The notes beneath the pieces are model-generated. The model ran no database searches, was not told the origin of the DNA, and saw only the letters and a list, made by a program, of their open reading frames with translations. The translations under genes were made by a program, and so were the position numbers. From Cyanobacteriota bacterium (lineage in GTDB: Bacteria > Cyanobacteriota > Cyanobacteriia > Thermostichales > Thermostichaceae), in the NCBI GenBank assembly GCA_033764955.1, contig JANRIL010000046.1, forward strand, positions 1 through 64,000: a stretch of DNA of 64,000 bases. The letters run 5' to 3'. This document shows, piece by piece, positions 3,813-33,741 of the stretch (within the stretch, counting starts at the first letter, position 1; the number at the start of each line of letters is the position of its first letter).

Positions 3813-3884
3813 TCAGAAGCAAAGTGTGGAAAGGGATCCCAAAACTACCGCTCATCCAGAGGGCGTGGAGCTAGGGATCCGTCC

Positions 3885-3943
3885 CCCTAACGCTTTCTCA
3901 CAGATAACCTCTCGGCAGTCGCTGTGCATTGGGGTTGTTATGC
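3885..3943 (-). other. Degenerate attC-like site (59 bp)
   Basis: Minus strand GCATAAC-AACCC-CAATGCACAG...CTGTGAGAAAGC-GTTAGGG just after the stop of the 3960 gene; inner pairing imperfect. Confidence 0.45.
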
Positions 3944-3959
3944 GCTGATCGCTGGGTCT

Positions 3960-5213
3960 TCATTCTCCCGGTTTAGGCTGTTGATGGGATCCAAAAGGAT
4001 TAACGATTTCCAGAAAATCTTTGGGTGGAGTGACAACCGCTTGAGAAGATGGCGATGGTTGAGTGGGACGGGCTTCACCCATGCCTAACGCGCCTTTTTC
4101 CAAAGTCCCTACAACAAGAGAACCAATATAATCAGCACTGGTATAGGCTGCCTCAATACACTGGTGGACATTCTCTAAATCTTTGTCATCAATAATGCCG
4201 TTGCTGGTAGCCTTATAGAATTGCACCGTGACACGAAGAGGATAACGTTCATCTCGTTCTAGCTTGTGACCTCCCAGTTCCAGATGCTCACCCTCATCCT
4301 CGCCGTACCCAATTACAGCATCTTCCATATCGCTGCCTTCTTCACACAAGAAAGCAACCCCTGCCACAAGTTCACCAGATCCAGGAGAAGCATCAAACCT
4401 TAAGTATTCAAGCTCTTTATGTTTGAGAGGCACTTGAATAACCATCACCATGTTGATATCTTGGGCAACCGTTACTTGTGCTCGTGCCTCTTCCAGCGAA
4501 ATTCCTTGTCGTAGAGCAATTTCTTGAGCCTGGTTTTCTTTGTAATCGCTCAATCGCTCACCTGTAAGACAGGTTTTCTGTCCATTGTTGTTGAAGTAAA
4601 GATTTTGTCCCCATTCAGCTAAATCATTTTCATTGTCAATCACTGTTGCACTGCTTCCTTCTGTAGTAATCAAGATAGCAAGAACAGCAGGGCTTTCCCT
4701 GCGCGATTGATAGTTAAATAACACTGGGTTAAAACTGCACCGACCTTGCTGGGGAATAGGCAGAAAACATGCCTGGGCACTGACTAAAACGTGAGTATCT
4801 TGCTCAGTTAATAGAGGTTGGCTCTCCGCATGGAGCTTTTCAGTATAACTGATGTATTGTGACAAATTAGTTAGGTATTCCTGCAACGTCACAGCTTGTA
4901 ATTCTTCTCCCTTTTCATTCCCTATTTTGATTTTGATCAGTTCCAAGGGAATATCACCCGTTTTATCTGTAAAGTTGGGGTAGCGAATGACAGGCAGGAG
5001 TTCTTTTTGATTAGGACGATCTGGATAGCGCACTTGAAGCGTCATGTCGCTAATATTTTCACCCCAAGTTGATCCGGGTGTACGTGCCATGTCCTCCCAC
5101 ATCACATTAACGACATTCAATCCCAGTTTTTTGACGCGATCGCATAACGCTATGTCGCGGATCATATTTACAACCCTTTTCATTGCAGTCTGAAATAAGT
5201 CATTGGTTGGCAT
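3960..5213 (-). CDS. Hypothetical protein of unknown function (possible gene cassette)
   Basis: Long AT-richer ORF with WEDMARTPGSTWGENISDMTL, SAQACFLP and FNYQS blocks; likely ATG at 5213, alternative 5255. Confidence 0.8.
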   Translation of the reverse strand: MPTNDLFQTAMKRVVNMIRDIALCDRVKKLGLNVVNVMWEDMARTPGSTWGENISDMTLQVRYPDRPNQKELLPVIRYPNFTDKTGDIPLELIKIKIGNEKGEELQAVTLQEYLTNLSQYISYTEKLHAESQPLLTEQDTHVLVSAQACFLPIPQQGRCSFNPVLFNYQSRRESPAVLAILITTEGSSATVIDNENDLAEWGQNLYFNNNGQKTCLTGERLSDYKENQAQEIALRQGISLEEARAQVTVAQDINMVMVIQVPLKHKELEYLRFDASPGSGELVAGVAFLCEEGSDMEDAVIGYGEDEGEHLELGGHKLERDERYPLRVTVQFYKATSNGIIDDKDLENVHQCIEAAYTSADYIGSLVVGTLEKGALGMGEARPTQPSPSSQAVVTPPKDFLEIVNPFGSHQQPKPGE

Positions 5214-5406
5214 AACGGTTTCTCTGGGGGGACAGTTCGGCAGAAAAGCAGACATCTCATGCTCAATATCTACATCTACAAGTAATAAATTCCGAGCAAA
5301 TCACCTAACAACTTCAAATTACAATCCCATCAATAGATTCAACACAGCTTCACCTTTAACGCTACAAGATAGGCTCCAAACTGCTGACTCAACAGCATTG
5401 AGCCGC

Positions 5407-19587: not shown

Positions 19588-20658
19588 TCATCTGACTTTG
19601 TCGCCCATATGTTTGTTACCCAACATTAGCAAGGAAGCATCGGAACCGACACATAGCACTGATACAAAGAGGATCCCTTGCAGCACGATAGCCACGGAAG
19701 AGGGCAACTTGGCAAACAATTGCAGGGCATCCCCCGCCGCCAGAATGCCCCCGATCAACAGGGACATGGGGATCACTCCCAGGAGACTATTTCCTGCTAA
19801 CCAGGCCACCAAAAAACCACTCAAGCCAAAACCATTAGAGATACCCACCTGCAGCCGCCCTTGGATCATGGCCGTTTCCGTAATCCCCGCCAACCCCGCC
19901 AGGGATCCCGCCAGGGCCATCACCAGCAGGACGTGAAACGGGTACTTGAGACCCACCTGCATGGCCAGGGGCGGATTGCTCTGCATGATGCGGAGGCTCA
20001 AGCCCCAACGACTCCAACGGTAGAGAACATAGAGGAGTAGCGCCATTCCCACGGCGATAAACAAGCCCCCATGGACACGGGATCCCGCTAGGAAGGGTAG
20101 CTTGGCCGTGGCTGGAAACTGGATCGTGGCTGGCCAGCCCAAATTGGCCGGATCCTTCCAGGGGCCATAGACGACAAAGCGCACCCATTGCATCCCCACA
20201 TAGTTGAGCATCAGGGTGCTGAGGGTTTCATTCACCGTCCACCTGGCTCGCAACCAACCGGGGATCCCGCCCCAGATCGCGCCCCCCACCGCACCCCCCA
20301 GCAGCACGAGGGGCAAGAGGAGCCAGCCGGGGCCATCGGGCCAGAGCAAGAGGATACCCGTACCGACCAAGGCTCCTAAATGCAGTTGTCCCTCCCCGCC
20401 GACAGAAATTAGGCCCAATTTGGCTGGTAGGGCTACGGCTAGGGCGCAGAAGAGAATTGGCGTTGTTTTGACCAGGGTTTCTGACCAGGCGTAGTCATCA
20501 CCAAAGGCCGCCTCCAGCATGGAGCTAAAAATGGTCAACGGTGACTGACCGATGGCCAGCAAAAACAGGCTGCTGAGGAGGATAAACACACTCAGGATGC
20601 CAAGGCCGGTGAGCAATGGGATCCGCAACGTCGATCCTGGGAGCCAGCGGGCGATCAT
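19588..20658 (-). CDS. Nucleoside/purine-type ABC permease
   Basis: ISVGGEGQ, VNETLSTLMLNY. Confidence 0.88.
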   Translation of the reverse strand: MIARWLPGSTLRIPLLTGLGILSVFILLSSLFLLAIGQSPLTIFSSMLEAAFGDDYAWSETLVKTTPILFCALAVALPAKLGLISVGGEGQLHLGALVGTGILLLWPDGPGWLLLPLVLLGGAVGGAIWGGIPGWLRARWTVNETLSTLMLNYVGMQWVRFVVYGPWKDPANLGWPATIQFPATAKLPFLAGSRVHGGLFIAVGMALLLYVLYRWSRWGLSLRIMQSNPPLAMQVGLKYPFHVLLVMALAGSLAGLAGITETAMIQGRLQVGISNGFGLSGFLVAWLAGNSLLGVIPMSLLIGGILAAGDALQLFAKLPSSVAIVLQGILFVSVLCVGSDASLLMLGNKHMGDKVR

Positions 20659-22163
20659 CCGGCCACCCCTGCCATCCAGCGACCCAACTGCTGTCGACTG
20701 GCCTGGGGCGTCGCTTGAATGCCGACAATGTGCCCTTTGGAGATCACGGCCACGCGGTGGGCATAGCGCATCAAATCATCCAGCTCCTCCGAAATCCAGA
20801 GGACGGCGGATCCCTGCTGGGCGTGGCGAAAGAGATGCTCATACACCGCCTGGGTCGCTGCCGCATCCAACCCCATGGTGGGGTAACAGGCCACAATCAA
20901 GAGGGGATCCCCAGACAACTCGCGGGCGATGATCAGCTTTTGCAGGTTGCCCCCCGAGAGCTGGCTGGCCACCTTGTGGGGATGGGGCGGACGCACATCA
21001 AAATCATGCAAGAGCACAGTCGCACGGTTGATCTGCCGTCGCCACCGGGGCCAAAAGGGCAAGGTTCGCACCTGATGTAGGGCCAGATTCGTTGCCAAGT
21101 CCAGATCCGGAGCCACCCCATGCTGCAACGGGTTTTCGGGAATGTAGGCCACCTGCGACCGCACCAGGGATCCCGGATGTAAGGGTTGACCCTGCACGAG
21201 AATCTCTCCGGCATGGAGAGACCGGATCCCGGCTAGGGCTTCGGCCAAAAGCGGTTGTCCATTGCCTGCGACCCCCGCCAAGCCTAAAATTTCCCCTGGC
21301 TGAATCTCCAGGTTAATGTCGCTGAGGCTCATTCCCGTGGCGGGATCCTGTAGATAAAGGCCGCGCACCTGGAGCAACGGGGATCCCGTGTCAAGGGGGC
21401 TAGTCCTGGGGAGTGCCGCCGTGACTTCATGACCCATCATCATCTCAATCAAGTCCGCTTTGAGCATTGGGGAAAGGGAGCCCCGATCAGGATTGGACAG
21501 ATCCCGTTGGTGGACGACTTTGCCCGCCCGCATCACCACCACCCGATCCGCACAGGCGGCCACATCCTCCAGTTTGTGGGTGATCAGCACTACGGCCCGT
21601 CCCTGTTGAGCCAGTTGCCGGATCAAGCCCCAGAGGCGTTCCGCTTCGGTGGGGGTGAGGACAGACGTCGGCTCATCCAGGATGATGCAACGAGCCTCCA
21701 GGTTGAGCACTTTGATCAGCTCCAGCAGTTGCTGCTGCCCCACGGCCAACTGATCCACCCGTAACCCCGGATCCAAATCGGGAGCCAGATCGCGCAACCG
21801 GGCCAGCACCTTGGCCTGGAGATGGTGGTTGCCCCAGTGCCACCACGGGCTCTTGGGGTAGGCCAGCAGCAGATTCTCCAGCACCGTCAAGGCTGGGATC
21901 AGATTGAACTGTTGAAACACCATGCCGATGCCGTGGGCGATGGCGGCACGGGGGGAGTGCATCACCATCGGCTGACCATCGATCTCAATCTGCCCTTGGT
22001 CGAGGGTATAGAACCCGTAGAGGATCTTCATCAGGGTGCTTTTGCCCGCGCCGTTTTCCCCCAGCAGGGCCAAGACCTGGCCAGGGCGAATCTCCAAATC
22101 CACCCCATCGTTGGCCAGGGTGGAGCCGAAGCGTTTGTGGATCCCGGTGAGGTGAATGTGCAT
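20655..22163 (-). CDS. CUT2-family double-domain ABC ATPase
   Basis: LLGENGAGKST, DEPT, LSGGNLQK. Confidence 0.92.
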   Translation of the reverse strand: MHIHLTGIHKRFGSTLANDGVDLEIRPGQVLALLGENGAGKSTLMKILYGFYTLDQGQIEIDGQPMVMHSPRAAIAHGIGMVFQQFNLIPALTVLENLLLAYPKSPWWHWGNHHLQAKVLARLRDLAPDLDPGLRVDQLAVGQQQLLELIKVLNLEARCIILDEPTSVLTPTEAERLWGLIRQLAQQGRAVVLITHKLEDVAACADRVVVMRAGKVVHQRDLSNPDRGSLSPMLKADLIEMMMGHEVTAALPRTSPLDTGSPLLQVRGLYLQDPATGMSLSDINLEIQPGEILGLAGVAGNGQPLLAEALAGIRSLHAGEILVQGQPLHPGSLVRSQVAYIPENPLQHGVAPDLDLATNLALHQVRTLPFWPRWRRQINRATVLLHDFDVRPPHPHKVASQLSGGNLQKLIIARELSGDPLLIVACYPTMGLDAAATQAVYEHLFRHAQQGSAVLWISEELDDLMRYAHRVAVISKGHIVGIQATPQASRQQLGRWMAGVAG

Positions 22164-22170
22164 GGTCTCA

Positions 22171-22563
22171 CTAACGGTGAGCGACTAGATCCACTTCTAC
22201 CCGTGGCCCACGCACCAAGCTGGTGACGCCAACACAGGTGCGGGCGGGCAGTTTGCCCTCAGGGAAATAGCTTTTGTAGACCTGATTAAAGGCATAAAAA
22301 TCCTCTTCCAGGTGGGTGAGATACACCCCCACTCGCAGGACGTTGTCAAAACCCAGCCCCAATTGGGAGAGAACCGTTTTCAGGTGTTGAAAGACCAAAT
22401 GGGTTTGGGCCTCGATGCCCTCAGGAATGGGAGCGGCGGGATCCCTGGGATCGAGGGGGGTTTGGCCGGTGAGGAACACCCAACCATCGATCTCGGCGGC
22501 ATGACAAAAGGGGCCGGTGGGTTGGGGTGCCCCATCCACCATATAAAAGGTCGGTAGGGTCAT
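22171..22563 (-). CDS. RidA/YjgF family protein
   Basis: FLTGQ, FNQVY, PARTCVGV, VEVDL. Confidence 0.9.
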   Translation of the reverse strand: MTLPTFYMVDGAPQPTGPFCHAAEIDGWVFLTGQTPLDPRDPAAPIPEGIEAQTHLVFQHLKTVLSQLGLGFDNVLRVGVYLTHLEEDFYAFNQVYKSYFPEGKLPARTCVGVTSLVRGPRVEVDLVAHR

Positions 22564-22596
22564 AGGGTTTGGTTGAATGGGTGCAGAACGAGGTGC

Positions 22597-23382
22597 TTAG
22601 AGTTGGCTGAGTCCATCCAGGAGCGACTGGGATTGGGTGAGGAAGCCAAACAGCAGTTTGACGTTGTAGTAGGTGGCCTCCAGGCAAAAGGCGGGGGAGG
22701 TGGTGGCCGTACAGTCCTGGAGCAAGATGGTGTCGTAGCCCAAAAAGTGGGCATCCTGCAGGGTGGTGAGCACACACTGGTCGGCATTGACGCCACCGAT
22801 AAAGAGGGTGGTCACCCCCAGATTGCGCAAAATGCTGTCCAGGTCGGTATCCCAAAAGCCGCTGAAGCGGTGCTTGGTAACGTGAATGTCCTGGTCGTTG
22901 GGGTGCAGCTCGTCCACAATGGCCGCGCCCCAGCCGCCTTTTTCCAGGACTTTCGCCCCGGTGGTGGGGGTGGGTTCCCCCAGACCAACTCGGATCCCGT
23001 CGGGGCTGTGGGCATGGAGTAGCGTTGGGCTGATGTTGAGCAGGTCGGGACGCACGCCCCAATTCACCCAAATCACCGGGATCCCGTGCTGGCGAAAGGC
23101 GGGCACGAGCTGGCGGAGAGGCTCAATCGGGGCCCGATCCGGCGTGTAGTCGACGCCCACTACATCCAACCAGCCACCGGGACTGCAAAAATCATTCTGC
23201 ATATCCACGATCAGCAGGGCCGACTTGGTGGCATCCACCACAATCCGCTGCGGATCCGCCGCCACACTCATCCGGCGCAGCGGACGGGACGGGCGGGACA
23301 TATCCACTTCTTCTGGGGTGACCCGCCAGGGGTTGGCCGGGGATCCCATCTGGCAGACGCCTTCTTGGCGAACGTACATCAC
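22597..23382 (-). CDS. Cysteine hydrolase (isochorismatase family, RutB/BiuH-like amidohydrolase)
   Basis: Catalytic triad motifs VDMQNDF, KHRFSGF, NADQCV. Confidence 0.88.
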   Translation of the reverse strand: MMYVRQEGVCQMGSPANPWRVTPEEVDMSRPSRPLRRMSVAADPQRIVVDATKSALLIVDMQNDFCSPGGWLDVVGVDYTPDRAPIEPLRQLVPAFRQHGIPVIWVNWGVRPDLLNISPTLLHAHSPDGIRVGLGEPTPTTGAKVLEKGGWGAAIVDELHPNDQDIHVTKHRFSGFWDTDLDSILRNLGVTTLFIGGVNADQCVLTTLQDAHFLGYDTILLQDCTATTSPAFCLEATYYNVKLLFGFLTQSQSLLDGLSQL

Positions 23383-23420
23383 GAACCTCTCCTAAACAAC
23401 CACCACCGAGGGATCCCGAC

Positions 23421-24533
23421 TTAACTGGCGGAGCCGATCACACCCTTGACCAAAAAGTTCATCGACTCCAGGGTTTCCATGGGCAATTTCACGCCACTGG
23501 CCACCACCTCGCTGCCGTCTTGTTTGAGGATGGGGCCAGACCAGACGACCTTTGCCCCGGAGAGGATCTGCTCTTTGACGGCCATCACTTTGGCTTGCAC
23601 ATCACTGGGAACGGCAGGCCCAAAGGGATCCAGCACCACGTCGCCACCCTTGAGGGTACCCCGGACAAACTCTGGTTTCCAGGTATCCCCCTGGATCTGC
23701 TTGACCAGATCCACCATCATCGGCCCCCAGTTCCAGGAGGCACCCGTGAGCCATGCCTTGGGCGCAAACTCGGTCACGTTCACATCCTTACCCACCACGT
23801 AGGCTCCCCGTCGTTCGGCGGTTTGGGCAAAGGTCAGGGGTGAATCGACTTGGCCCGCCAGGACATCGGCCCCCCCATCCAACAGGGCATTGGCCACTTC
23901 CGCTTCTTTGGGGGGATCCAACCAGGCTCCCGTCCAGACCACGGTGGTGGTGGCCTCAGGATTGATGCTTTGGGCACCCATGGTGAAGGCGTTGATGGTG
24001 CGCAGCACTTGGGGAATTTGGAAGGCTCCCAAAAAGCCCAATTTACCCGTTTTACTCAGGGATCCCGCCACCATCCCTGCCAAATAGATGGCATCGTCGC
24101 TATCGGCCCAGTAGGTGCCCACATTGGCTCCCAACTTCAGACCCCCGGCATGGAGGAAACTCACTTCGGGATATTTCTGCCCCACGGTGATGGCGTGATC
24201 CAAATAGCCATAGCTAGTGGCAAAAATGATGCCGTGATCATCGCGGATGAGGCGTTCCATCACCCGTTCCACCTCGGCACTTTCGGGAATGTTGTCAAAA
24301 TAGGTGGTTTCCACGCCCAGGGTCTTTTCCACGTATTGCCGACCCAAATCCATGGAGTAGTTGTAGCCATAGTCGCTCTGGGGGCCAACGTAGATGTAGC
24401 CAATCTTTTTGGTATTCACCTGAGCCTGAGCCCTCTGCCATGAACTGGCCGAGAGCATGGCCCCACCCGCCATCAACCCCGCTTGCAAAATCTGGCGACG
24501 GCTGAACCCTGCTGCCAATAAACGTCTGGACAT
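23421..24533 (-). CDS. BMP-family ABC substrate-binding protein, Tat signal
   Basis: SRRQIL; YVGPQSDYGYN, FATSYGY, NAFTMGA. Confidence 0.9.
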   Translation of the reverse strand: MSRRLLAAGFSRRQILQAGLMAGGAMLSASSWQRAQAQVNTKKIGYIYVGPQSDYGYNYSMDLGRQYVEKTLGVETTYFDNIPESAEVERVMERLIRDDHGIIFATSYGYLDHAITVGQKYPEVSFLHAGGLKLGANVGTYWADSDDAIYLAGMVAGSLSKTGKLGFLGAFQIPQVLRTINAFTMGAQSINPEATTTVVWTGAWLDPPKEAEVANALLDGGADVLAGQVDSPLTFAQTAERRGAYVVGKDVNVTEFAPKAWLTGASWNWGPMMVDLVKQIQGDTWKPEFVRGTLKGGDVVLDPFGPAVPSDVQAKVMAVKEQILSGAKVVWSGPILKQDGSEVVASGVKLPMETLESMNFLVKGVIGSAS

Positions 24534-24606
24534 GACATGTTCCTCAATACGGGACAATCAACGCAACATTCTGGACTAAAGACCGGAGCGAGCCAGCATG
24601 AGGTCA

Positions 24607-25605
24607 TCAGCCCGTGCTGCCAAAGACCCCTTTCAACCCCTGGGGCATCCCCCCCCGTTGGGCCGTGGCCGAACTGACAACCAACACCGCCAGCGACAAG
24701 AGGTAGGGCAGTGTGGCCAAGAGATAGGACGACACCTCCACCCCCATCGATTGCAGCCGCAGGTACAACGCCTCGGATCCACCAAACAGTAGGGCTGCCG
24801 GACAGGCCCAAAAGGGATTCCAGCGGGCCACGATCACCAAGCCCACCGCCACCAGACCTCGTCCAGCGGTCATGTTTTCCGCCCAGGTGAGGGTATAGTC
24901 CACCGACAGCGCTGCCCCACCCAGGCCTGAGAGCAAACCCCCGATGCCGATACCCTGCATCTGCACCCACCAGGGTCGGATCCCCATGCTGCGGGAAGCC
25001 GGAATCGATTCCCCTACCGCCCGCCAGATCAATCCCGTGTGGGTGCCATAGACCAAGACCCCGATGACGGGCACCAGCAGCAGCGACAGCAGGATAGTCG
25101 GGGTCAACTCCCCCACCACCGCGCCCAATCCACTGATCTTTTGCCCCACGTAGGCTCGCCCCCAGTAGGCACTGAGGCCGGATCCCAGCACCCACACCGC
25201 GACACCGCTGGCGATGGCATTGGTGCGTAAACCCACGCAGAGCAGCATGTGCAAGCTCGACAGGGCCAGCCCGGCCAGGGATCCCGCCAGCAAGCCCAGC
25301 CAGGGGTTTTGGCTGATCACCGTGACGGCAAAACCAACGCAGGCCCCCAGCAGCATTTGCCCTTCCACCCCCAAATTGATCACCCCCGTCAGTTGGGTCA
25401 GGGTTTCCCCCACCACCACAAACAGAATGGGAGAGGCACTACGCAGCGTGGCCCACAACCAACCGGAGGTCATCTCTGGGGGAGCACTGACCAGTAGGGC
25501 GACCGCTACCACCAGAACGACCCCCAGGGAGCGCCACCGCCTCCGAAACGGCATTAACGATGGGATCACGAAGGCCGCTCCTACGCCCAGGGAATGTCCC
25601 AGCAT
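24607..25605 (-). CDS. Nucleoside/purine-type ABC permease
   Basis: GVINLGVEGQM, RAVGE, TAGRG, TLPYL; ATG at 25605 avoids overlap with gntR. Confidence 0.85.
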   Translation of the reverse strand: MLGHSLGVGAAFVIPSLMPFRRRWRSLGVVLVVAVALLVSAPPEMTSGWLWATLRSASPILFVVVGETLTQLTGVINLGVEGQMLLGACVGFAVTVISQNPWLGLLAGSLAGLALSSLHMLLCVGLRTNAIASGVAVWVLGSGLSAYWGRAYVGQKISGLGAVVGELTPTILLSLLLVPVIGVLVYGTHTGLIWRAVGESIPASRSMGIRPWWVQMQGIGIGGLLSGLGGAALSVDYTLTWAENMTAGRGLVAVGLVIVARWNPFWACPAALLFGGSEALYLRLQSMGVEVSSYLLATLPYLLSLAVLVVSSATAQRGGMPQGLKGVFGSTG

Positions 25606-25652
25606 CTTAGGGATCCCGCCGGAAAACATCCGTAGCTGGCGATACACAATAT

Positions 25653-25664
25653 AGGATATATCCT
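25653..25664. promoter_or_regulatory. Candidate GntR operator
   Basis: Perfect palindrome AGGATATATCCT between the divergent permease and gntR. Confidence 0.55.
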
Positions 25665-25728
25665 GTAGGCGATTTGCATTTCCCCATCCACAGCGGATGA
25701 TGGAAGCATCGCTTCGCCGTATCCTCCC

Positions 25729-26403
25729 ATGACTGCTGTCAAACCTGTGCTTGCTTCCTTGGCCGGGATCCCGCGCACCACCCAAGCCACCGTCACCGAG
25801 CAGTTGCGGCGAGCTATTTTATCGGGGGCATTGCCAGGGGGATCCCGACTGACCCAGGCGGAACTGGCCAACGCCTTTCAGGTCAGCATTACCCCAGTGC
25901 GCGAGGCCCTACGCGAACTGAGCACCCAAGGGTTGATCGAGCTGGATGCCTTTCGCTGTGCGGTTGTCCATACACCGACATTGAAAGAACTGGAAGAAAT
26001 TTATGAACTGCGGCAGGTGTTGATTCCCTACACCGTGGAGCATGGGATCGCCAAAATCTCACCGGAGGAACTCCGGCAAGCCGAGACGCTGCTGACCACC
26101 ATGGAGCGGGAAACGGATCAATCGCTGTGGGTGGATCTGAATCGCCAATTTCACAATCTCCTGGAGCAGGCCGTGGACAACTCCCATGTGCAAGCCACCC
26201 TGCGCCGCCTCTCCGATTTTTCGGCAATTTACGTCAATTTGTCCTTTGCCAAGCAACCCCTGCAAAAGGAAGACTCGGAGCGGGAACACCGTCAAATCCT
26301 GCAAGCCTATCAGGATCGGGATCCCGTGTTGGCCACCCAATTAACCTTGGCTCACGTCAGCGCTACATTGGTGGCCGCGAGACAGGTATTTAGGCAGGAG
26401 TAA
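25729..26403 (+). CDS. GntR/FCD family transcriptional regulator
   Basis: LRRAILSGALPGGSRL, VSITPVREAL, NRQFH, EHRQI. Confidence 0.93.
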   Translation: MTAVKPVLASLAGIPRTTQATVTEQLRRAILSGALPGGSRLTQAELANAFQVSITPVREALRELSTQGLIELDAFRCAVVHTPTLKELEEIYELRQVLIPYTVEHGIAKISPEELRQAETLLTTMERETDQSLWVDLNRQFHNLLEQAVDNSHVQATLRRLSDFSAIYVNLSFAKQPLQKEDSEREHRQILQAYQDRDPVLATQLTLAHVSATLVAARQVFRQE

Positions 26404-26476
26404 GGTGTCTCGTCAATTCAATGCCCTCATGGCCAGCAGTGATAGCTCACCCTTTTAAGCAGATTGTTAGGCTTGC

Positions 26477-27586
26477 ATGGAGAAATTTGGTGCTATGGAA
26501 ATAGAAGGTTTAAAAGCGCTGAACGTTTTCGTTGATTCATCAATATTTATCGGCAAAAACTACAGATATGAGCACCCTTCGTTTGTTGCTCTCAAGGATG
26601 CTGTATCGGCAGGGCGAGCCAATTTGCTGATTACGGATATAACCATAGAGGAAGTGAAGGCGCATATAGATAACGATGTTAGCGAGTCTTCGCAAGCTCT
26701 TAAGAAAGTTCATGGTGGGGTAAAGATTCTTAGAAACATTGCTAAGCTAAGTGATTCAGCCATATTCAATGATATTGATCGCGCATCCGTCGGTGAGGAG
26801 CTTTATAAGCAGTTTGAACAGTTTTTGACAGATGCCAGGACAGTCATCGTTTCAGTATCGGAGGCCAACACGCGGTCTGTCTTTGATTGCTACTTCAAGC
26901 GTGCTGCGCCATTTGGCGAAGGAAAAAAGAAGAGCGATTTTCCTGATGCATTTGCATTATCGGCATTGAACGAATGGGCGGAATCAGAGCAGGAGGATGT
27001 ATTCGTTGTAAGCCAAGATTCAGACATGAATGGAATCGAAGTCGATTTTCCGTGTTTGTCAGCACTTAGCTCACTGGAAGAGTTTCTGGGCAAAGTTACT
27101 TCATACTTTGAGGAACTCGCTCCGCTAGCTCAGCAGTTGTTGGAAGACAATTTTGGCCAAATTGCGGATATTCTTGAAGAAAGATTTCAGTGGCTTGGCT
27201 TCGTATTGGCGGATCAAGATGGTGATGTGAATGAAACTAGAGTCACTGAGGTCGGAGAGATTTCTGCCTACCTGATTTCGCTAACCCCCGGCTCAAATGG
27301 CGAGCCAGCAGAAGCGCGATTTGAGTTGACTACAACCATCGCATATGAAGCGGACGTGTCATATGACAACCTAGAAACGGCGAGTTATGATAGCGAGGAT
27401 AAGGTGTTTATCCCTTGGGAGACTGTCGAGCAAACAGTTGAAAGCTCTGAAATAGTTCAGGCTAACCTAAGATTTACGTTTAATATGACCGAACCTCGCA
27501 ATCAAGAAATTAAAGAACTGGATTTGCACACGCCAACGGACGTTTCGGTTTCTACGGAAGAAAACGATGGCTGGCCTTACAAGTAA
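26477..27586 (+). CDS. Cassette 1: PIN-like domain protein (DUF4935-type) with acidic C-terminal domain
   Basis: VFVDSSIF, ITIEEV, APF..GKKKSDFPDAF, VVSQDSD acidic PIN motifs. Confidence 0.75.
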   Translation: MEKFGAMEIEGLKALNVFVDSSIFIGKNYRYEHPSFVALKDAVSAGRANLLITDITIEEVKAHIDNDVSESSQALKKVHGGVKILRNIAKLSDSAIFNDIDRASVGEELYKQFEQFLTDARTVIVSVSEANTRSVFDCYFKRAAPFGEGKKKSDFPDAFALSALNEWAESEQEDVFVVSQDSDMNGIEVDFPCLSALSSLEEFLGKVTSYFEELAPLAQQLLEDNFGQIADILEERFQWLGFVLADQDGDVNETRVTEVGEISAYLISLTPGSNGEPAEARFELTTTIAYEADVSYDNLETASYDSEDKVFIPWETVEQTVESSEIVQANLRFTFNMTEPRNQEIKELDLHTPTDVSVSTEENDGWPYK

Positions 27587-27589
27587 TTG

Positions 27590-27661
27590 GCTTAACACGG
27601 CACTGCACCTGACCGCTTTTCCACTACGCTCCAAAGCGGCAGGTGAGTTTAGTCGTTGGGC
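27590..27661 (+). other. attC site 1 (72 bp)
   Basis: GCTTAAC-N5-ACT[G]CAC-CTG[A]CCGCTTT-loop-AAAGCGGCAG-GTGAGT-N6-GTTGGGC: canonical boxes with two unpaired bases. Confidence 0.93.
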
Positions 27662-27682
27662 TGCTTCGGGAATTGAAGAGTT

Positions 27683-29059
27683 ATGAGCTTAAAGAAAATA
27701 GAGCTAAAGGGGTTGCGAGGATTCGCAACAGTCCAATATCTAGAATTTGCTATTCCTAATGGGGATCCCGGAAGTGGAATTACTACCTTAGTAGGACCTA
27801 ATAATGGAGGGAAATCCACTGTAATTGAAGCAATCCGTGCATTATCGCTAAGGGACCCACCTAGCTTTACTGTAGGCAAACGAAACCAGAAAGCGGGAGA
27901 TCGAGTTAAAATAACCGTCTTCAATGAGTTAGCGCAAACCAAAGAACTGTGCACTATTGATGCGGGTGGTAGCGAAACTCACTGGGTTGTTAACAATGAT
28001 CCCCTTCCCCCTGGAAGTGTATTCGTTTTGCCATCAAGACGCTACTTTAATCCCCTCTTTGGTAAAGCTTCCTCCGAACGGCAGTCCTACATTATTTCGT
28101 ACGGTCTACCACAAACACGAGGCTCTGTAATTGACCACTTCGCTTCTAGGTTGTTTCAAGTTCAAAAGAATCGAACTGCGTTCGATTCTGTCTTAGGTAA
28201 AGTGTTAAGCCCCGTACCTAATTGGACAATTGACCAATCAGATGGAGGTCAGTATTTTCTCAAGTTCGATTTTGGGGGTTTCTATCATAACAGTGACGGA
28301 CTTGGAGAAGGTCTTGTTAGCTTATTCTTTATAATTGACGCTTTATATGATTCCAAGCCCAATGACATAATCGTCATTGATGAGCCTGAGCTTTCTTTAC
28401 ATCCGTCTTTTCAAAGGAAACTCGCCTCCTTGCTTGTTGATTATGCTTCAAACAGGCAGATTATTATTGCTACTCATTCACCCTATTTTGTTGATTTTCA
28501 TGCAATAACTAATGGGGCAAAAATTGCCCGTATATATTCCGATGATTTCAATTCCACTATAAGAATGCTCAGTGAAGATTCTGTTAGTAGGATCAAAGGC
28601 TTTCTAAATAACTCATTTAATCCACACGTTCTTGGGCTTGATGCCCGCGAAGTGTTCTTTCTTGAAGAAAGAATAATTCTTGTGGAAGGTCAAGAAGATG
28701 TGGTTTTCTACAAGGATATTTCTTCTCAGTTGGATAAACAGCTTAATGGTAATTTCTTTGGCTGGGGTGTTGGAGGAGCGCATAACATGGAAATAATAGC
28801 TGCCTTATTACAAGATTTAGGGTTTAAGAAGGTCGTCGGGATTCTAGATGAAGATAAAAAAGAGTTGATACCAGAATTAAAAGGGAAGTTCCCTGATTAC
28901 AATTTCTTCAACATTCCTGCAAAAGATGTTCGTACTAAGCCTGCAATTGCTGCGAAAGACTCTGTCATAGGTTTGATTGATAAGTCGGGGGTGCTTAAAC
29001 TTGAGTATAAAGATGAGGTTAATGGACTGTTCGATCAAATTAACGCTAAACTTGCATAA
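27683..29059 (+). CDS. Cassette 2: OLD-family ATP-dependent nuclease (ABC/AAA ATPase plus TOPRIM)
   Basis: GPNNGGKST, LGEG, IDEPELSLHP, ATHSPY, LVEGQED, ILDED. Confidence 0.88.
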   Translation: MSLKKIELKGLRGFATVQYLEFAIPNGDPGSGITTLVGPNNGGKSTVIEAIRALSLRDPPSFTVGKRNQKAGDRVKITVFNELAQTKELCTIDAGGSETHWVVNNDPLPPGSVFVLPSRRYFNPLFGKASSERQSYIISYGLPQTRGSVIDHFASRLFQVQKNRTAFDSVLGKVLSPVPNWTIDQSDGGQYFLKFDFGGFYHNSDGLGEGLVSLFFIIDALYDSKPNDIIVIDEPELSLHPSFQRKLASLLVDYASNRQIIIATHSPYFVDFHAITNGAKIARIYSDDFNSTIRMLSEDSVSRIKGFLNNSFNPHVLGLDAREVFFLEERIILVEGQEDVVFYKDISSQLDKQLNGNFFGWGVGGAHNMEIIAALLQDLGFKKVVGILDEDKKELIPELKGKFPDYNFFNIPAKDVRTKPAIAAKDSVIGLIDKSGVLKLEYKDEVNGLFDQINAKLA

Positions 29060-29064
29060 GCACA

Positions 29065-29151
29065 GCCCAACAACCCTGGTGACGCGGACTCGCAAGATTG
29101 ATCTACTATAGCGGCACGTGGCTTTGGAGCTGCTGACCAAGACCGTTAGCC
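29065..29151 (+). other. attC site 2 (87 bp)
   Basis: GCCCAAC...GCGG[A]CTC pairing with GAGCTGC...TGACCA-N5-GTTAGCC; L box slightly degenerate. Confidence 0.8.
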
Positions 29152-29163
29152 CAGAAGAGACGC

Positions 29164-29943
29164 ATGATTGAATCGTTGCCGACTTCGTGGCGGGACTTGC
29201 AAGAGCGAGTTGCCCGAATTCTCAACGAGTGTGGCATCGATACTTCCGTCGAGAAGCAAGTCACCCTGGCGCGAGGTAGAGCCAAAATAGATGTCTGGGC
29301 TTATGATGCTTCATCTGTGCCTCCGCAGACCTACATAATCGAGTGCAAGCGATGGTTCGAACCCGTGCCTCAAACGGTTGTCCACGCATTTCGCAGCGTT
29401 GTCGGAGACTGCGGCGCTAATTGGGGTGCTATCGTGTCGTGCAACGGTTTCCAAAGCGGTGCTTACGAGGCGGCCCAATACTCCAACGTACGGCTTCTCA
29501 CTTGGTATGACTTTCTTGCTCTGTTTGAAACGGCGTGGTTCGATCGCTATTTCTGCCGCATCGTTGCCGAAGCGTCAGAGCCCCTCATCGAGTACACCGA
29601 GACGATCAATTCTCGCATCTTCCGAAAGGCGGATCTTCTCTCAAAAGGGCAACACGAGGAGTTCAAACGTCTTCGCTCTGTCCACTTTTCTCTCGCTGCC
29701 ATCTGCATGATGATGCGGGTGCAGGCAAATGGGGCTCTGCGTCTCGTTCGTGGCGACCATGATTCCATCATGCTCGATATCCCCTTGCGCCAAGGTATGC
29801 GAGGGGCAGCCTCGGAACTACTTGGTACGTTACCCAATTCAATCCTCGATGCCGACTCGTACCGAATTCTGCTGTCTGCGATAATCGAAGAGGTAGAGAA
29901 TGCCATCGCGTCGTTTGATCATCTGTTCGGCGAAAGGGCGTAA
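29164..29943 (+). CDS. Cassette 3: Mrr-type (PD-(D/E)xK) restriction endonuclease
   Basis: LQERVARIL, KIDVWA, IIECKRW, IVSCNGFQSGA. Confidence 0.85.
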   Translation: MIESLPTSWRDLQERVARILNECGIDTSVEKQVTLARGRAKIDVWAYDASSVPPQTYIIECKRWFEPVPQTVVHAFRSVVGDCGANWGAIVSCNGFQSGAYEAAQYSNVRLLTWYDFLALFETAWFDRYFCRIVAEASEPLIEYTETINSRIFRKADLLSKGQHEEFKRLRSVHFSLAAICMMMRVQANGALRLVRGDHDSIMLDIPLRQGMRGAASELLGTLPNSILDADSYRILLSAIIEEVENAIASFDHLFGERA

Positions 29944-29947
29944 AAGG

Positions 29948-30036
29948 GGCTAACCAAGCGTTGGAGCAGACTCGCGATAGCGTCCTGCGGTATGGTGAGG
30001 TTGTTGGCTGTTAGCTGCTGAGCTTTTTCGTTAACC
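29948..30036 (+). other. attC site 3 (89 bp)
   Basis: GGCTAAC-N5-GTTGGAG-CAG[A]CT...AGCTG-CTGAGC-N6-GTTAACC. Confidence 0.8.
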
Positions 30037-30418
30037 CTTACGATCTAAAACAGTGCTCAACGCCTTACGGCATCACAGGCAAAAGCACGCATCTAGGTAC
30101 AGACAGACATAACATAAATAGTGGAGCGGCCTGCTCAACCCCTAAGGGCATTGGCAGACCCAAAGATATTAGGGATAAGAAACCAGCCGTTTTCTCAAAC
30201 AAACTATGCCTGACTCCCTGGGAGGGTACCAGCCAAGCGGTCCCTTGAAGGGATAGCCCCCACGCTCGTGATAGATTTTGATGATTGAGCAACTTCATAG
30301 GGAAGATCCGCTGGCTAAAGTCCGGTTTACGTTTAGCAGGGATAGGAACTTTAGTTTGCTTTCCAGCCATCTCAATATCATCTAAATCCCCCGATCTAAA
30401 CAAATTAAGCCAATCGCT

Positions 30419-31036
30419 TTGGATACTTTCCCAAACATGCTTAAGACCGATCGCTCTTGCCTGAGCCTGCTCCGCTGTTGTCGATGGTTAGTCTGTTGGG
30501 GACTGATTCTTGGTTTGACCGGCTTAGCATGGGAAATCAACCTGGGTCGCCCAGCCCATGCCCAGCCCCCTCCGGTTGAAGCCGCAGCAAGGCAGGTCAT
30601 TAGTCGAGAAGAGGCGGAGCAACGGCTAGCGGTGATTGCTCAGGCAATGGAGTCGATTCGGTTGTGTAACCGCCCTGGCTGTCGCTTTTTGCAAATTAAT
30701 AGCCAGGTTCATCCCCAGGATGCTGAGCAACCCTCCCCCATCTACACAGGCGAGATCAACGCCATCATCGATCGCCCCGCCGCTACCCTCGACAAAGCCC
30801 ATTACCAGCTTGAATTTCGGGAGGGGCGCTGGCGTCTGTTGGGTGGAGAGGAGCTATCGGATGTTTCCTCCTTCTTTTTTGACGGAGATGAATATGAAGT
30901 ATTTAGTTCCTACAGTGGGCGTACCCGCATCGAAAAGCTGCAAAACGCCAGTCCAAATCTTCGCATTGGCTATGGAGCACTCTACTTTCAAATCATGCAG
31001 GCGGGGGTGGAAAAGCTCGCTCCCGACCCCTCCTAA
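30419..31036 (+). CDS. Hypothetical exported protein
   Basis: Signal-like hydrophobic stretch ending PAHA; no family recognised. Confidence 0.6.
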   Translation: MDTFPNMLKTDRSCLSLLRCCRWLVCWGLILGLTGLAWEINLGRPAHAQPPPVEAAARQVISREEAEQRLAVIAQAMESIRLCNRPGCRFLQINSQVHPQDAEQPSPIYTGEINAIIDRPAATLDKAHYQLEFREGRWRLLGGEELSDVSSFFFDGDEYEVFSSYSGRTRIEKLQNASPNLRIGYGALYFQIMQAGVEKLAPDPS

Positions 31037-31077
31037 GGAATGACCAACTCACGGGCGGGATCCCCTTTCCACCCAAA

Positions 31078-32052
31078 TTAGGCAGGAATTCGCCCTCCTC
31101 CCATCAAATAAAGCAAAGCCATGCGGATCGCCACCCCATCGGTGACTTGCTGATCAATCAAGCTCACGCCAGGATCTTCCATCAAGTCAGAGGTAATTTC
31201 CACACCGCGATTCACCGGCCCCGGATGGAGCAATTTGACATCGGGATGACATCCAGCCAAGCGCTCCCGATTCAGTCCGTAGAGGTGATGATAGTCCCGC
31301 AGGCTAGGCAAGAGGTGCTGTTGCATCCGTTCTTGCTGCAACCGCAGCGCCATGACAAAACGTGCCCCTTCTAGAGCCGTTTGGAGTTGCCAGTGAATGG
31401 AGATCCCCCACTCCGCAAAAGTTGAGGGTAGGAGGGTGGGGGGACCTGCTAGGTGGAGATCAGCTCCCAGCGTTTTCAGACACCAGATGTTGGATCGGGC
31501 AACCCGCGAATGCAAAATATCGCCGACGATGGCAATTTTGACCCCCCGCAGTAGAGTGGGATCCGGTTGCTGGGGATTGAGGTGGCTGCATAAGGTAAAC
31601 ATATCCAACAGACCTTGGGTGGGATGTTCGTGTTGTCCATCCCCCGCATTCAACACCCCGGCGGGGGATCCCTTCCGTTCCACCTCCTGGGCCATCTGTA
31701 TGGGCACGCCCGCTTGGGCATGGCGCACCACCAAAATATCGGTTCCCATCGCCAAAAAAGTGCGGGTGGTATCGAGGATGGTTTCGCCTTTGCTGAGGGA
31801 GGAGGTGCCAGGGGCAAAGTTTAAGACATCCGCCGACAGTCGTTTAGCGGCCAATTCAAAGCTGTTGCGGGTACGGGTGGAGGCTTCAAAAAATAAGTTG
31901 GCGACCACTTTGCCCTGTAGGGTAGGAACTTTGGGCAACCGCCGCGACAGGACTTCCCGAAAGCTAGCCGCCGTTTGCACCACTATTTCATATTCGCTGG
32001 GGGTAAAGTCTGCTAACCCCAACACATGCCGCCGATGCCAAGCCACCGCCAT
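31078..32052 (-). CDS. pyrB: Aspartate carbamoyltransferase catalytic subunit
   Basis: [28 protein letters not shown]. Confidence 0.97.
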
Positions 32053-32184
32053 AAAGCCTCATTATTGATGCCACTAACCATTTTTGAGTCTGAGCTAGCA
32101 AAGTTTTAGTTAGGGGTTATTCACTTTCCGCATTTTGACATGTTCCCGCGAGGCTTCCTCCCTCTAGATAAAGGCTGAACGGAG

Positions 32185-33741
32185 TCAATCGGCTACTGGC
32201 TCACACGTCTGCACAATGGCGGCCACGAGGGCTTCTAGGGTGTAGGGATCCGCCACAATATCCACCCGCCCCCAGAGGTTTTCACAGGTTTCGGCGGTTT
32301 TAGGGCCAATCGCGGCGATTTTGGGCTTTTTCATCCATGCCCAGGGATCCCCATCTGCTGCTGCCTGTTGCAATAACTGCCAAAAGTGGGAAACGGTCTT
32401 GGAACTGGCAAAGGTGAGGATGTCAATCTGCTCTTGCTGTAATGCCCAGATCACCGGCGGGTCGGCTTGCGTAGGACATTGGGACTGATAAGCGGCTACT
32501 TCACAAACCTCTGCTCCTAAGGCTTGCCATGCCTGAACGAGGGTTTCTCGTCCACCTGATTCCACCCGTGGAAAGAGAATGGTTTGCTGGTGGGGGTTGG
32601 GTAAAGCGGTGACCAGAGCATCCGCTACAAATTCATGGGGGATTACGTCTGCGCGCAATCCATATTCAGCCAGGGTGGCGGCGGTTTTGGTTCCTACCAC
32701 CATAATCTTTAGCCCTGCCAGGGCACGGCTATCTCGTTGATGATGGTGCAGCCGCTCAAAGAAGTAGCGGACGGCATTGGCGGAGGTGAGGCAAAGCCAG
32801 GTAAAACGAGGCAGGTGGAGAATCGCCTGATCTAAAGGACGCCAATCACTGGGGGGAACGATCTCTAGAGTGGGCATTTCCAGAACCCGTGCCCCTTGGC
32901 TGTGGAGGAGATTTCGCAGGGGAGAACTTTGGCTGTCGGCGCGGGTGACTAAAACCGTCTTACCCCTGAGGGGCAGGGTAGGGGGTGGGGGCGGCAGATG
33001 GGGCTGGAGGGTGGGGCGAAAGTTGACTACGGATCCCACCACAATCACACTGGGGGGCTGGAGGGAAGTGGGCGGGTGGTGCAGGGATCCGATCTCCACC
33101 TGTTGTTGGGGGGATCCGGCCTGGCCAATCACCGCCACCGGACAATCAAGAGGTTTGCCTGCTTGCCGCAGTTTTTGACAGAGGGAAGGCAAGGGTTGGG
33201 ATCCCATCAGGATGACCAGAGTATCCAGGCTAGCCAGTTCGGCCCACGGCAGTAGGTCGAGGTCATGGGCAGTCAAAACGGCAAAACAACGGCTGAGGGT
33301 TTTGTGGGTGAGGGGAATGCCCGCCAAAAGGGGAGCGGTCAACGCCGATGAGAGTCCTGGCAGGATCTCAAACGCACACCCCGCCGCCTGCAACGCCGCC
33401 ACTTCTTCTAGGGCACGGCCAAAGATCAAAGGATCCCCCGCTTTCAGCCGCACCACCTGCTGCCCCGCTCGATAACGTTCAATCATCTGGGCATGGATAT
33501 CCGCCTGCACCACCGGCGCGGGGATAGGGGATCCCGCTCGTTTGCCGACGCGGATCACTTGAGCCTTGGGGGGAAGGCTAGCCACCACCGATTCCTCCAC
33601 TAGCGCATCCACGAAGACCACATCCGCTTGTTGCAAGACCCGCTGCCCCTGCACCGTCAGCGCATCTACTCCTCCCAAGCCTGCCCCCATCAGATAAATT
33701 TTGGGTGGTGGGGAGGGGGAAGTTGGCACGGCATCATCCAT
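32185..33741 (-). CDS. Uroporphyrinogen-III C-methyltransferase / synthase fusion (CobA-HemD)
   Basis: RLKAGDPLIFGR, PGLSS, then VLVTRA, LTSANAV, TFASSKTV. Confidence 0.93.
   Translation of the reverse strand: MDDAVPTSPSPPPKIYLMGAGLGGVDALTVQGQRVLQQADVVFVDALVEESVVASLPPKAQVIRVGKRAGSPIPAPVVQADIHAQMIERYRAGQQVVRLKAGDPLIFGRALEEVAALQAAGCAFEILPGLSSALTAPLLAGIPLTHKTLSRCFAVLTAHDLDLLPWAELASLDTLVILMGSQPLPSLCQKLRQAGKPLDCPVAVIGQAGSPQQQVEIGSLHHPPTSLQPPSVIVVGSVVNFRPTLQPHLPPPPPTLPLRGKTVLVTRADSQSSPLRNLLHSQGARVLEMPTLEIVPPSDWRPLDQAILHLPRFTWLCLTSANAVRYFFERLHHHQRDSRALAGLKIMVVGTKTAATLAEYGLRADVIPHEFVADALVTALPNPHQQTILFPRVESGGRETLVQAWQALGAEVCEVAAYQSQCPTQADPPVIWALQQEQIDILTFASSKTVSHFWQLLQQAAADGDPWAWMKKPKIAAIGPKTAETCENLWGRVDIVADPYTLEALVAAIVQTCEPVAD

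Follow-up and report, generated by a model that had tools for sequence, protein, structure and literature searches.

How do three co-oriented genes, each followed by an element resembling the recombination site (attC) of an integron cassette, come to lie in a cyanobacterial chromosome with no integron integrase gene (intI, encoding IntI) nearby? This question is raised by positions 26466-30036 of a 64,000-nt stretch of a Cyanobacteriota genome (positions 1 to 64,000 of contig JANRIL010000046.1, assembly GCA_033764955.1), hereafter called the window. It corresponds to C34:1-64000, contig C34 being 88 kb long, and the host genome is labelled G000. We assign a probability of approximately 85% to the reading that this region is a true three-cassette array served by IntI in trans, i.e., an attC site cluster that lacks integron-integrases (CALIN). 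This reading is favoured because of the covariance-model matches of the three sites, the complementarity at the cassette boundaries, and the homologs of all three genes in cassette contexts, which together uphold the original prediction that this is an attC array without intI.

The array extends from 26466 to 30036 and comprises cassettes at 26467-27655, 27656-29145, and 29146-30030, with the three attC sites falling within 2.4 kb. An xxxxAAC...GTTxxxx element had been placed 3-5 nt past the stop codon of each of three co-oriented open reading frames (ORFs), at 27590-27661, 29065-29151, and 29948-30036, and these coordinates hold. The elements start 3, 5, and 4 nt after the stop codons of ORF1, ORF2, and ORF3, respectively, all on the + strand. 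The features of the array are as follows, with bulged bases in brackets.

26466..26472, + strand: left boundary core GTTAGGC (G|TTAGGC), from sequence reading; cassette 1 begins at 26467.
26477..27586, + strand: cassette 1 gene (ORF1), PIN_12, 369 aa from the first ATG; Pfam PF16289, 2.5e-28.
27590..27661, + strand: attC site 1, 72 nt; R'' GCTTAAC, stem T[G]CACCTG[A]CCGC, R' GTTGGGC.
27683..29059, + strand: cassette 2 gene (ORF2), ABC-type ATPase plus probable TOPRIM, OLD-family nuclease-like, 458 aa.
29065..29151, + strand: attC site 2, 87 nt; R'' GCCCAAC, stem T[G]ACGCGG[A]CTC, R' GTTAGCC.
29164..29943, + strand: cassette 3 gene (ORF3), Mrr_cat (PD-(D/E)xK restriction-endonuclease fold), 259 aa; Pfam PF04471, 4.2e-13.
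29948..30036, + strand: attC site 3, the weakest, 89 nt; R'' GGCTAAC, stem T[G]GAGCAG[A]CT, R' GTTAACC.

The ends of an attC site consist of an inverse core R'' (consensus RYYYAAC) and a core R' (consensus GTTRRRY). The ends of site 1 fit this consensus exactly, those of sites 2 and 3 show one departure each, and AAC and GTT are invariant. Strict counting of RYYYAAC/GTTRRRY ends was dropped as uninformative, and models were used in its place. According to the model alignments, the 5' arm of the top strand in sites 1-3 carries two single-base bulges, a G and an A, at a distance of six pairs, and the loops measure 12-40 nt. The extrahelical bases of attC(aadA7) and of VCR sites are found on the same arm (the 3' arm of the bottom strand) and are also six pairs apart. 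The two unpaired bases previously ascribed to site 1 are indeed these G and A bulges of the top-strand 5' arm, and the fold of this site comprises a 3-nt bubble, the two bulges, and a 13-nt loop. Compared to the consensus GCGG/CCGC, the L stems of site 1 (CCTG/CAGG) and site 3 (GCAG/CTGC) show compensatory changes. No terminator-like T-runs are observed at sites 1-3. In an excerpt of PMC11641012, attC sites are defined by an R box, an L box, an unpaired spacer, 2-3 extrahelical bases, and a variable terminal structure, and are described as being cleaved at the AAC with a preference for the bottom strand.

As the loose AAC...GTT motif is common, genuine attC sites of the host genome served as the standard for testing the three sites. 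Model R1 was built from 8 attC sites adjoining intI on contig C9, and model R2 from 51 sites gathered with R1 from 22 loci of the same genome, the window being excluded. When the entire 64 kb was scanned with R2 on both strands and with no filters, sites 1-3 occupied ranks 1-3, all on the + strand, with 40.0 bits (E 1.7e-7), 29.9 bits (5.4e-5), and 24.9 bits (9.1e-4), respectively, and rank 4 scored 11.6 bits (E 1.8). With R1 over 25000-32000, sites 1-3 were again ranks 1-3 (30.3, 28.6, and 17.5 bits); site 1 was missed with R1 under the default filters. As for the attC covariance-model check proposed with the original prediction, both lineage models built here place the three sites at the top. 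Their R2 scores of 25-40 bits compare with 28-88 bits for the resident sites, and R2 also recognises attC-like sites within arrays from a different phylum.

The sites used for training form a genuine, structured attC family, including 13 sites at the two intI loci (L009 and L010). In its alignment (A2, 51 sites), 84.3% of the cells are paired and 15 of 19 pairs show double changes, whereas none of 500 shuffles reached the observed support and slid partners were paired in only 19-44%.

An alternative is that the three genes belong to a defence island that arrived by another route, and that the AAC...GTT palindromes are terminators or chance occurrences. The looseness of the motif, the fact that sites 2 and 3 fold like shuffled sequences, and the remnant of a CRISPR (clustered regularly interspaced short palindromic repeats) array abutting the block, as in a defence hot spot, are all in line with this explanation. 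In contrast, it does not account for the three highest ranks in the window being followed by a 13-bit gap to rank 4, nor for the conserved bulges and compensatory stem changes, and the absence of T-runs is not what terminators would show. Two further observations, the complementarity between R'' and the start of its own cassette (6/7, 7/7, and 7/7) and the homology to an intI-linked cassette that stops at the predicted cassette ends, are also at odds with it. This alternative was already disfavoured and is very improbable; both observations are detailed below, as they bear directly on the reading as a cassette array.

Within an array, a cassette begins with the final six bases of the R' that precedes it. 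Therefore, the R'' of a cassette should complement its own 5' core better than the adjacent core. For cassettes 1, 2, and 3, R'' complements the own 5' core at 6/7, 7/7, and 7/7 positions, respectively, versus 5/7, 5/7, and 6/7 for the adjacent core. The R'' of site 2 is the exact complement of the GTTGGGC opening cassette 2, and the R'' of site 3 that of the GTTAGCC opening cassette 3. By our estimate, in which AAC/GTT are fixed and base composition is ignored, the joint chance of two full matches and one match at three of the four free positions is of the order of 1e-6. Genome-wide, an exact complement of R'' is found 100-3500 nt upstream for 31 of the 51 attC sites, compared to 11 of 51 downstream and to 11.6 +/- 3.0 for permuted R'' (maximum of 22.4 in 300 permutations). 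This own-core complementarity is the footprint of a circular cassette. As site 3 is the terminal site, its TTAACC would derive from the host or from DNA present earlier.

With regard to homologs, a scan of species-representative genomes revealed a protein with 75% amino acid identity to ORF1, encoded on contig CAZDAB010000052.1 (locus L067) of a Desulfobacteraceae metagenome-assembled genome (MAG). At the DNA level, cassette 1 (26465-27601 of the window) and positions 2983-4119 of this locus are 77% identical over 1138 nt, with no similarity shared beyond the ends, and the similarity extends from one base before the G of GTTAGGC into the R'' of site 1. In L067, the PIN_12 gene starts behind GTTAGGC, and its stop codon is followed by TTGGCCTAAC...TCGTTGGGA, ending with GTTGGGA. 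The cassette is the first unit after an intI gene (1528-2754, 407 bits, over the TIGR02249 cut-off), and further co-oriented ORFs and attC-like matches are found downstream of it. This intI gene is in the same direction as the cassettes and is separated from the first one by a 230-nt AT-rich spacer; the MAG contains three IntI over the cut-off and many fragments. ORF1 probably starts at 26495, after a GGAG, which corresponds to the start of the homolog. ORF1-like proteins are present in 12 of 401 sampled genomes of the cyanobacterial phylum, including the host, the other 11 being at most 35% identical.

The other two genes also have homologs in cassette contexts. For ORF2, one of the 351 genomes of the phylum of the MAG (G722) encodes a homolog with 55% identity, which starts 11 nt after an attC-like site of 13.4 bits. 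For ORF3, three of these 351 genomes encode homologs with 37-45% identity, and the gene of the best one (38%, G709) is located between attC-like matches of 22.7 bits before and 17.1 bits after it. ORF1-ORF3 align over nearly their full length with their homologs, which indicates that they are not decayed. None of them shows a DNA match in 30 relatives. In the host genome, no paralogs of ORF1 or ORF3 were found. Two weak ATPase paralogs of ORF2 (26-35% identity) are located at C42:18055-18252 and C48:74979-75479, each within approximately 1-1.5 kb of attC-type matches at C42:17046-17116 and C48:73915-73986, and may be further ATPase cassettes.

Which integrase could have served this array? The original prediction, according to which no integrase is present, is correct for the window and for the 88-kb contig: of the 11 PF00589 matches and nine TIGR02249 matches of the genome, none is on C34, where no tyrosine recombinase and no intI fragment was detected. 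It does not hold for the genome, in which the proposed search for IntI yielded two full-length genes over the TIGR02249 cut-off of 265, at C9:16-1116 (463.2 bits) and C38:63588-64529 (451.4 bits), without stops. The two IntI are 88% identical, and each heads its own cassette array. The C9 array is a textbook integron: its attI region contains direct repeats and a GTTAGGC crossover, and behind it are small ORFs in one orientation, each preceding an 86-88-nt imperfect palindrome; C9 comprises at least eight attC sites and C38 five. The resident attC sites exhibit an R'' of the xGCTAAC type, two unpaired bases, a covarying variable stem of 5-7 bp, a T, a bulged G, a 6-bp stem (CAGCGG), and a bulged A, followed by a further stem, a variable loop, and a bulge-free return arm ending with CGTTAGC. 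The second attC of C9 (L009 2591-2647) shows a duplicated L'-R' half, with GTTATCT at 2615 and GTTAGGC at 2641, and the R'' of the next cassette complements the second core, GTTAGGC, at 7/7 positions by manual reading.

The host genome contains approximately 84 attC-type sites (81 found with a hidden Markov model (HMM) plus the three of the window), which form 55 loci with a 4-kb threshold: 40 singles, seven pairs, six triples, and two intI-linked arrays of five and seven sites. Every multi-site array is co-oriented. With 150 candidates scored per genome, the host gave 73 attC matches, at least three times the number in each of 22 relatives of the family (24 or fewer). Within the family (23 genomes), the attC type is present in 17 genomes and IntI over the cut-off in 10, which indicates that the integron system is native to the lineage. 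The scatter of the attC loci could partly result from contig breaks. This does not apply to the array of the window, as it is located between host genes on a single contig. Further intI pieces were observed at C36:180-860 (two TAG), C4:4-123, C30:655-831, and C38:182627-182934 (split by stops), some of them at contig ends, which suggests additional decayed or unassembled integrons.

The original prediction left two origins for the cassettes, an integrase acting in trans or a broken integron; both are still live, and the data lean to the former. If a complete integron was once present here, its intI and attI would have been deleted, leaving the three cassettes. CALINs were first proposed to be degraded integrons, according to the part of PMC4889954 that concerns them, decayed intI pieces exist elsewhere in the genome (those on C36 with two TAG and at C38:182627-182934 with stops), and the left core GTTAGGC is identical to the attI crossover of the C9 integron (L009:1199). 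However, this heptamer also opens the cassette of the Desulfobacteraceae MAG, and can be explained by the TTAGGC of the cassette itself, which is common to the MAG copy. The 88-kb contig carries neither an intI fragment nor another tyrosine recombinase, and the 62 nt between the left gene and the boundary at 26466 lack the paired, attI-like direct repeats of the C9 kind. In addition, the three sites resemble neither one another nor the resident family, which is not expected of a local sedentary array. Deletion of a local integron is thus unlikely.

The event can be placed more precisely with respect to the neighbouring features, listed here from left to right.

Left of the block: ABC-transporter operon, with isochorismatase and RidA genes in between the ABC transporter genes.
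25729..26403, + strand: GntR/FCD-family regulator (gntR), host gene; Pfam FCD 5.9e-19, GntR 1.2e-14.
30053..30151, - strand: decayed CRISPR remnant, with a full repeat at 30053-30089 and a degenerate copy at 30132-30151; Rfam CRISPR-DR33.
Right of the block: conserved hypothetical gene, a flank gene.
31078..32052, - strand: pyrB-like aspartate/ornithine carbamoyltransferase, host gene; Pfam OTCace_N 9.2e-40, OTCace 1.1e-23.
Right flank: cobA/hemD fusion, host gene.

The gntR gene has the same orientation as the cassettes, and 62 nt separate its stop codon from the array. On the other side, the pyrB-like gene has a DNA match of 66-72% identity in all 30 relatives. In the mechanism that we propose, IntI would be supplied in trans from the genes on C9 and C38, the activity of which is predicted. 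The bottom strand of an attC site would fold into a hairpin, and IntI would cut at the AAC of the R box. We somewhat favour the view that either one cassette or a circle of several cassettes was inserted by IntI at the GTT located 62 nt behind the gntR stop codon, by attC x attG recombination. Later cassettes may have been added at resident attC sites. After insertion, the left junction would read G|TTAGGC and the right one ...G|TTAACC. IntI could also excise and reinsert the cassettes via their folded bottom strands, probably most easily at site 1 and least at site 3. Expression of the cassettes would likely depend on read-through from the co-oriented gntR, and no terminator-like site was found between gntR and ORF1.

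Alternatively, part of a resident integron array may have been moved here by insertion sequence (IS)-mediated or homologous rearrangement, rather than by an integrase. In PMC4889954, within the part dealing with CALINs, IS are reported to adjoin 38% of CALINs, more often in genomes bearing IntI, and the many attC copies of this genome are possible substrates for recombination. In contrast, no match to transposase families was found among the neighbouring genes scanned (18.6-40 kb of the window), and both ends of the array coincide exactly with GTT cores. The three sites are at the bottom of the resident scores and are missed by the HMM, so they do not look like copies of resident arrays. Such a rearrangement is quite improbable. 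Both local decay and IS-mediated transfer fit the data less well than insertion in trans.

Several observations nevertheless weigh against the reading as a cassette array inserted in trans. Firstly, R1 and R2 are lineage-specific and not generic attC models, and site 3 alone would not reach significance in a whole-genome search. When an HMM trained on the sequence of the resident attC family alone was run (nhmmer, four rounds), it gave 81 matches in the genome, with none of sites 1-3 at E <= 1e-3. Secondly, with regard to the proposed check that bottom strands fold into attC hairpins, only site 1 has the canonical bulged hairpin as its minimum-energy fold (-14.1 kcal/mol, compared to a median of -13.9 and a range of -5.3 to -34.5 kcal/mol for 51 resident sites). 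Sites 2 and 3, at -9.6 kcal/mol each, fall into the lower third of this range, and their free optimum differs from the attC hairpin. With flanks, the bottom strands of these two sites are no more stable than shuffled sequences (z +1.22 and -0.05, respectively). The canonical fold forced on the R boxes costs +1.6 kcal/mol for site 2 and +4.9 kcal/mol for site 3, and site 2 exhibits two non-standard pairs in its L stem. As end-to-end pairing in the free fold is observed in just 28 of the 51 resident sites, these poor folds weaken sites 2 and 3 without excluding them. Thirdly, no attC is detectable behind the stop codon of the ORF2 homolog in G722, promoter-like sites are not enriched (four versus 5.9 in shuffles), and the assembly is a draft (3.8 Mb, 48 contigs, 89% complete).

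The last point of this kind concerns the empty site downstream of gntR, for which a look at relatives had been proposed and which was not found: across 24600-32100, the 30 relatives match the flanks only. The sole close DNA match (G014, 95%, 19642-25926) breaks inside a truncated gntR, and G005 exhibits a C-terminal gntR remnant in another context. The gntR gene is present in seven of the 23 family genomes, including the host, and the copies inspected (G014 and G005) do not show this context. A metagenome scan with GntR yielded five loci, all at most 30% identical. One public run (X1), in which 7% of the sampled words were present, contained contigs approximately 96-97% alike over 23000-26345, which stop at a contig end, and nothing in it spans the array. 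As no empty site was found, insertion in trans is what we infer from the remaining evidence.

Regarding the cargo, the cassettes appear to encode three unrelated nuclease-type proteins, namely a PIN_12 protein, an OLD-like ATPase-TOPRIM protein, and a Mrr_cat fusion. ORF1 has neither a PADLOC nor an NCBIfam match. ORF2 matches AAA_21 (3.1e-26, 93.6 bits) and AAA_15 (1.9e-23) in Pfam, and its OLD-like_TOPRIM match (1.5e-4, 22.7 bits) is just below the cut-off of 23.2. In PADLOC, it matches AriA (3.8e-26), Old (5.8e-20, the model spanning 225-389), and GajA (3.9e-17); in NCBIfam, no equivalog was reached, the best match scoring 48 bits versus a cut-off of 500. The Mrr_cat domain of ORF3 is N-terminal, the remainder of approximately 140 aa has no family match, and the only PADLOC match is PDC-S02 (E 0.0029). 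The GC content is 0.55-0.64 in the left flank, 0.38-0.46 across ORF1-ORF2, and 0.52-0.55 across ORF3 (0.449, 0.414, and 0.538 for cassettes 1, 2, and 3, respectively). Given this contrast and the absence of DNA matches in relatives, the cargo looks foreign. Each gene is most likely a stand-alone defence against phages or plasmids, drawn from a cassette pool that several phyla have in common, although our confidence in this point is lower: the defence role, which is plausible, is suggested by domain type and analogy, and no convincing defence-library match was obtained for ORF1 and ORF3, which weighs against it.

The individual properties of the array have precedents, so it is less unusual than the original prediction implied. 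Integrons in Cyanobacteria and abundant CALINs are documented in PMC4889954, according to which half of the CALINs are in genomes with IntI elsewhere. Cassette insertion outside att sites, at a GWT target by attC x attG recombination, is described for IntI1-3 in an excerpt of bioRxiv 10.1101/2022.09.11.507474, and defence genes in integron cassettes, including Mrr_cat fusions, in one of bioRxiv 10.1101/2024.07.02.601686. The array conforms to CALINs as delimited in extracts of PMC4889954 and of IntegronFinder 2.0 (bioRxiv 10.1101/2022.02.28.482270): at least two co-oriented attC sites within 4 kb, one ORF each, and no intI within 10 kb. It shares their small size (83% of CALINs have fewer than six sites) and the presence of IntI elsewhere (PMC4889954, same part). 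It differs from them in nothing of kind, the sites being called here with models derived from the intI-linked attC sites of the same genome. In contrast to a complete integron, the array has no adjacent intI or attI-like repeats.

A similar likeness is seen with attG insertions, single attC sites lacking integron-integrases (SALINs), and small CALINs as reported in the portion of Loot et al. (bioRxiv 10.1101/2022.09.11.507474) that describes them. The G|TT junctions fit GWT, the location is intergenic and behind a co-oriented gene, no IS or intI remnant is present, and the host genome also holds 40 single-site loci. The system of Loot et al. is experimental, as presented there, and in Escherichia coli, whereas here the event is deduced and concerns three cassettes instead of one. 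Compared to the resident C9 and C38 integrons, the attC architecture is the same (R boxes, bubble, bulged G, 6-bp stem, and bulged A) and two of the three sites have a similar length of 86-89 nt. In contrast, the sites of the window are lower-scoring and missed by the HMM, site 1 is only 72 nt long, and the GC content and homologs of the cargo point to a foreign pool. The L067 integron of the Desulfobacteraceae MAG shares the PIN_12 cassette, the 5' core GTTAGGC, and the attC frame consisting of stop-TTGGCYTAAC ... TCGTTGGG, whereas its cassette is the first beside intI and its attC is approximately 45 nt long with another inner stem.

As for the cargo, the cassettes resemble those of Darracq et al. 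(bioRxiv 10.1101/2024.07.02.601686), the excerpted text of which describes single-gene, streamlined, nuclease-type cargo with one system per cassette. A Mrr_cat fusion named 'Epona' is among the Vibrio cassettes tested in that text, and ORF3 is likened to it by its domain. The differences are that the host is a cyanobacterium here and that ORF1 and ORF3 lack a convincing PADLOC match. ORF2 resembles the OLD-family nucleases (P2 Old, GajA, and AriA of PARIS) in its clear ABC-type ATPase, which is followed by a probable TOPRIM. In contrast to these, it occupies a cassette by itself, without a GajB or AriB partner, and its TOPRIM match is just under the Pfam cut-off.

A few other elements were observed in the surroundings of the array. 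The first repeat of the CRISPR remnant is located 16 nt past the last attC, and the two repeats are 78 nt apart from start to start. The match to CRISPR-DR33 (32 bits, E 5.3e-4) is under the Rfam gathering score of 39. The same repeat forms arrays in relatives and, in this assembly, is found only at the remnant and as a partial copy at the start of contig C42. It is the sole match in the Rfam scan of 24000-33000, which gave no attC-type match. To the left, a 6.3-kb transporter block (19642-25926), made up of ABC transporter, isochorismatase, and RidA genes, is 95% identical to contig C1 of G014 (L022 1605-7904), a genome of another genus, whose pyrB is merely 69% identical and whose gntR is cut where the similarity stops. 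The block may result from a recent transfer.

AttC-like elements were also observed outside the array. In the relative G011, a degenerate attC-like element (L077 2031-2120, - strand) shares 82% identity over 44 nt with positions 29952-29995, the 5' half of site 3, and its loop region resembles that of site 3. In the window, a shortened attC-like element is present at 3881-3947 on the - strand (R'' GCATAAC ... R' GTTAGGG; R2 11.6 bits, E 1.8). Its first half nearly matches a C9 site (L009:7856-7943), and it lies behind an ORF at 3960-5255 (- strand, 431 aa) with no Pfam match. It is probably a decayed single-cassette insertion.

Based on these observations, the array of the window is a genuine but fairly ordinary case of a known kind of mobile gene array, and our understanding of integrons is unchanged by it. 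What it adds is a cassette found across phyla, boundaries that are known exactly, and a host genome in which the attC sites are unusually scattered. It constitutes a clean, fully delimited natural CALIN outside Proteobacteria, with the probable enzyme encoded in the same genome, and the counterpart of cassette 1 at the attI of an integron of another phylum is direct evidence of a cross-phylum cassette pool for cyanobacteria. The intact nuclease-type cargo, with two genes lacking a defence-library match, provides cheap candidates for new single-gene defences. With its 55 attC loci and two IntI, the host genome would be a good natural test bed for the recently proposed spread of cassettes through attG sites. 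A tentative view, to which we give slightly less than even odds, is that the integron of this lineage acts as a genome-wide insertion system rather than as a single docking platform, the scattered sites being whole cassettes put at ordinary GTT sites. If so, some of these cassettes would be foreign defence genes, shared with Desulfobacterota and placed behind host promoters.

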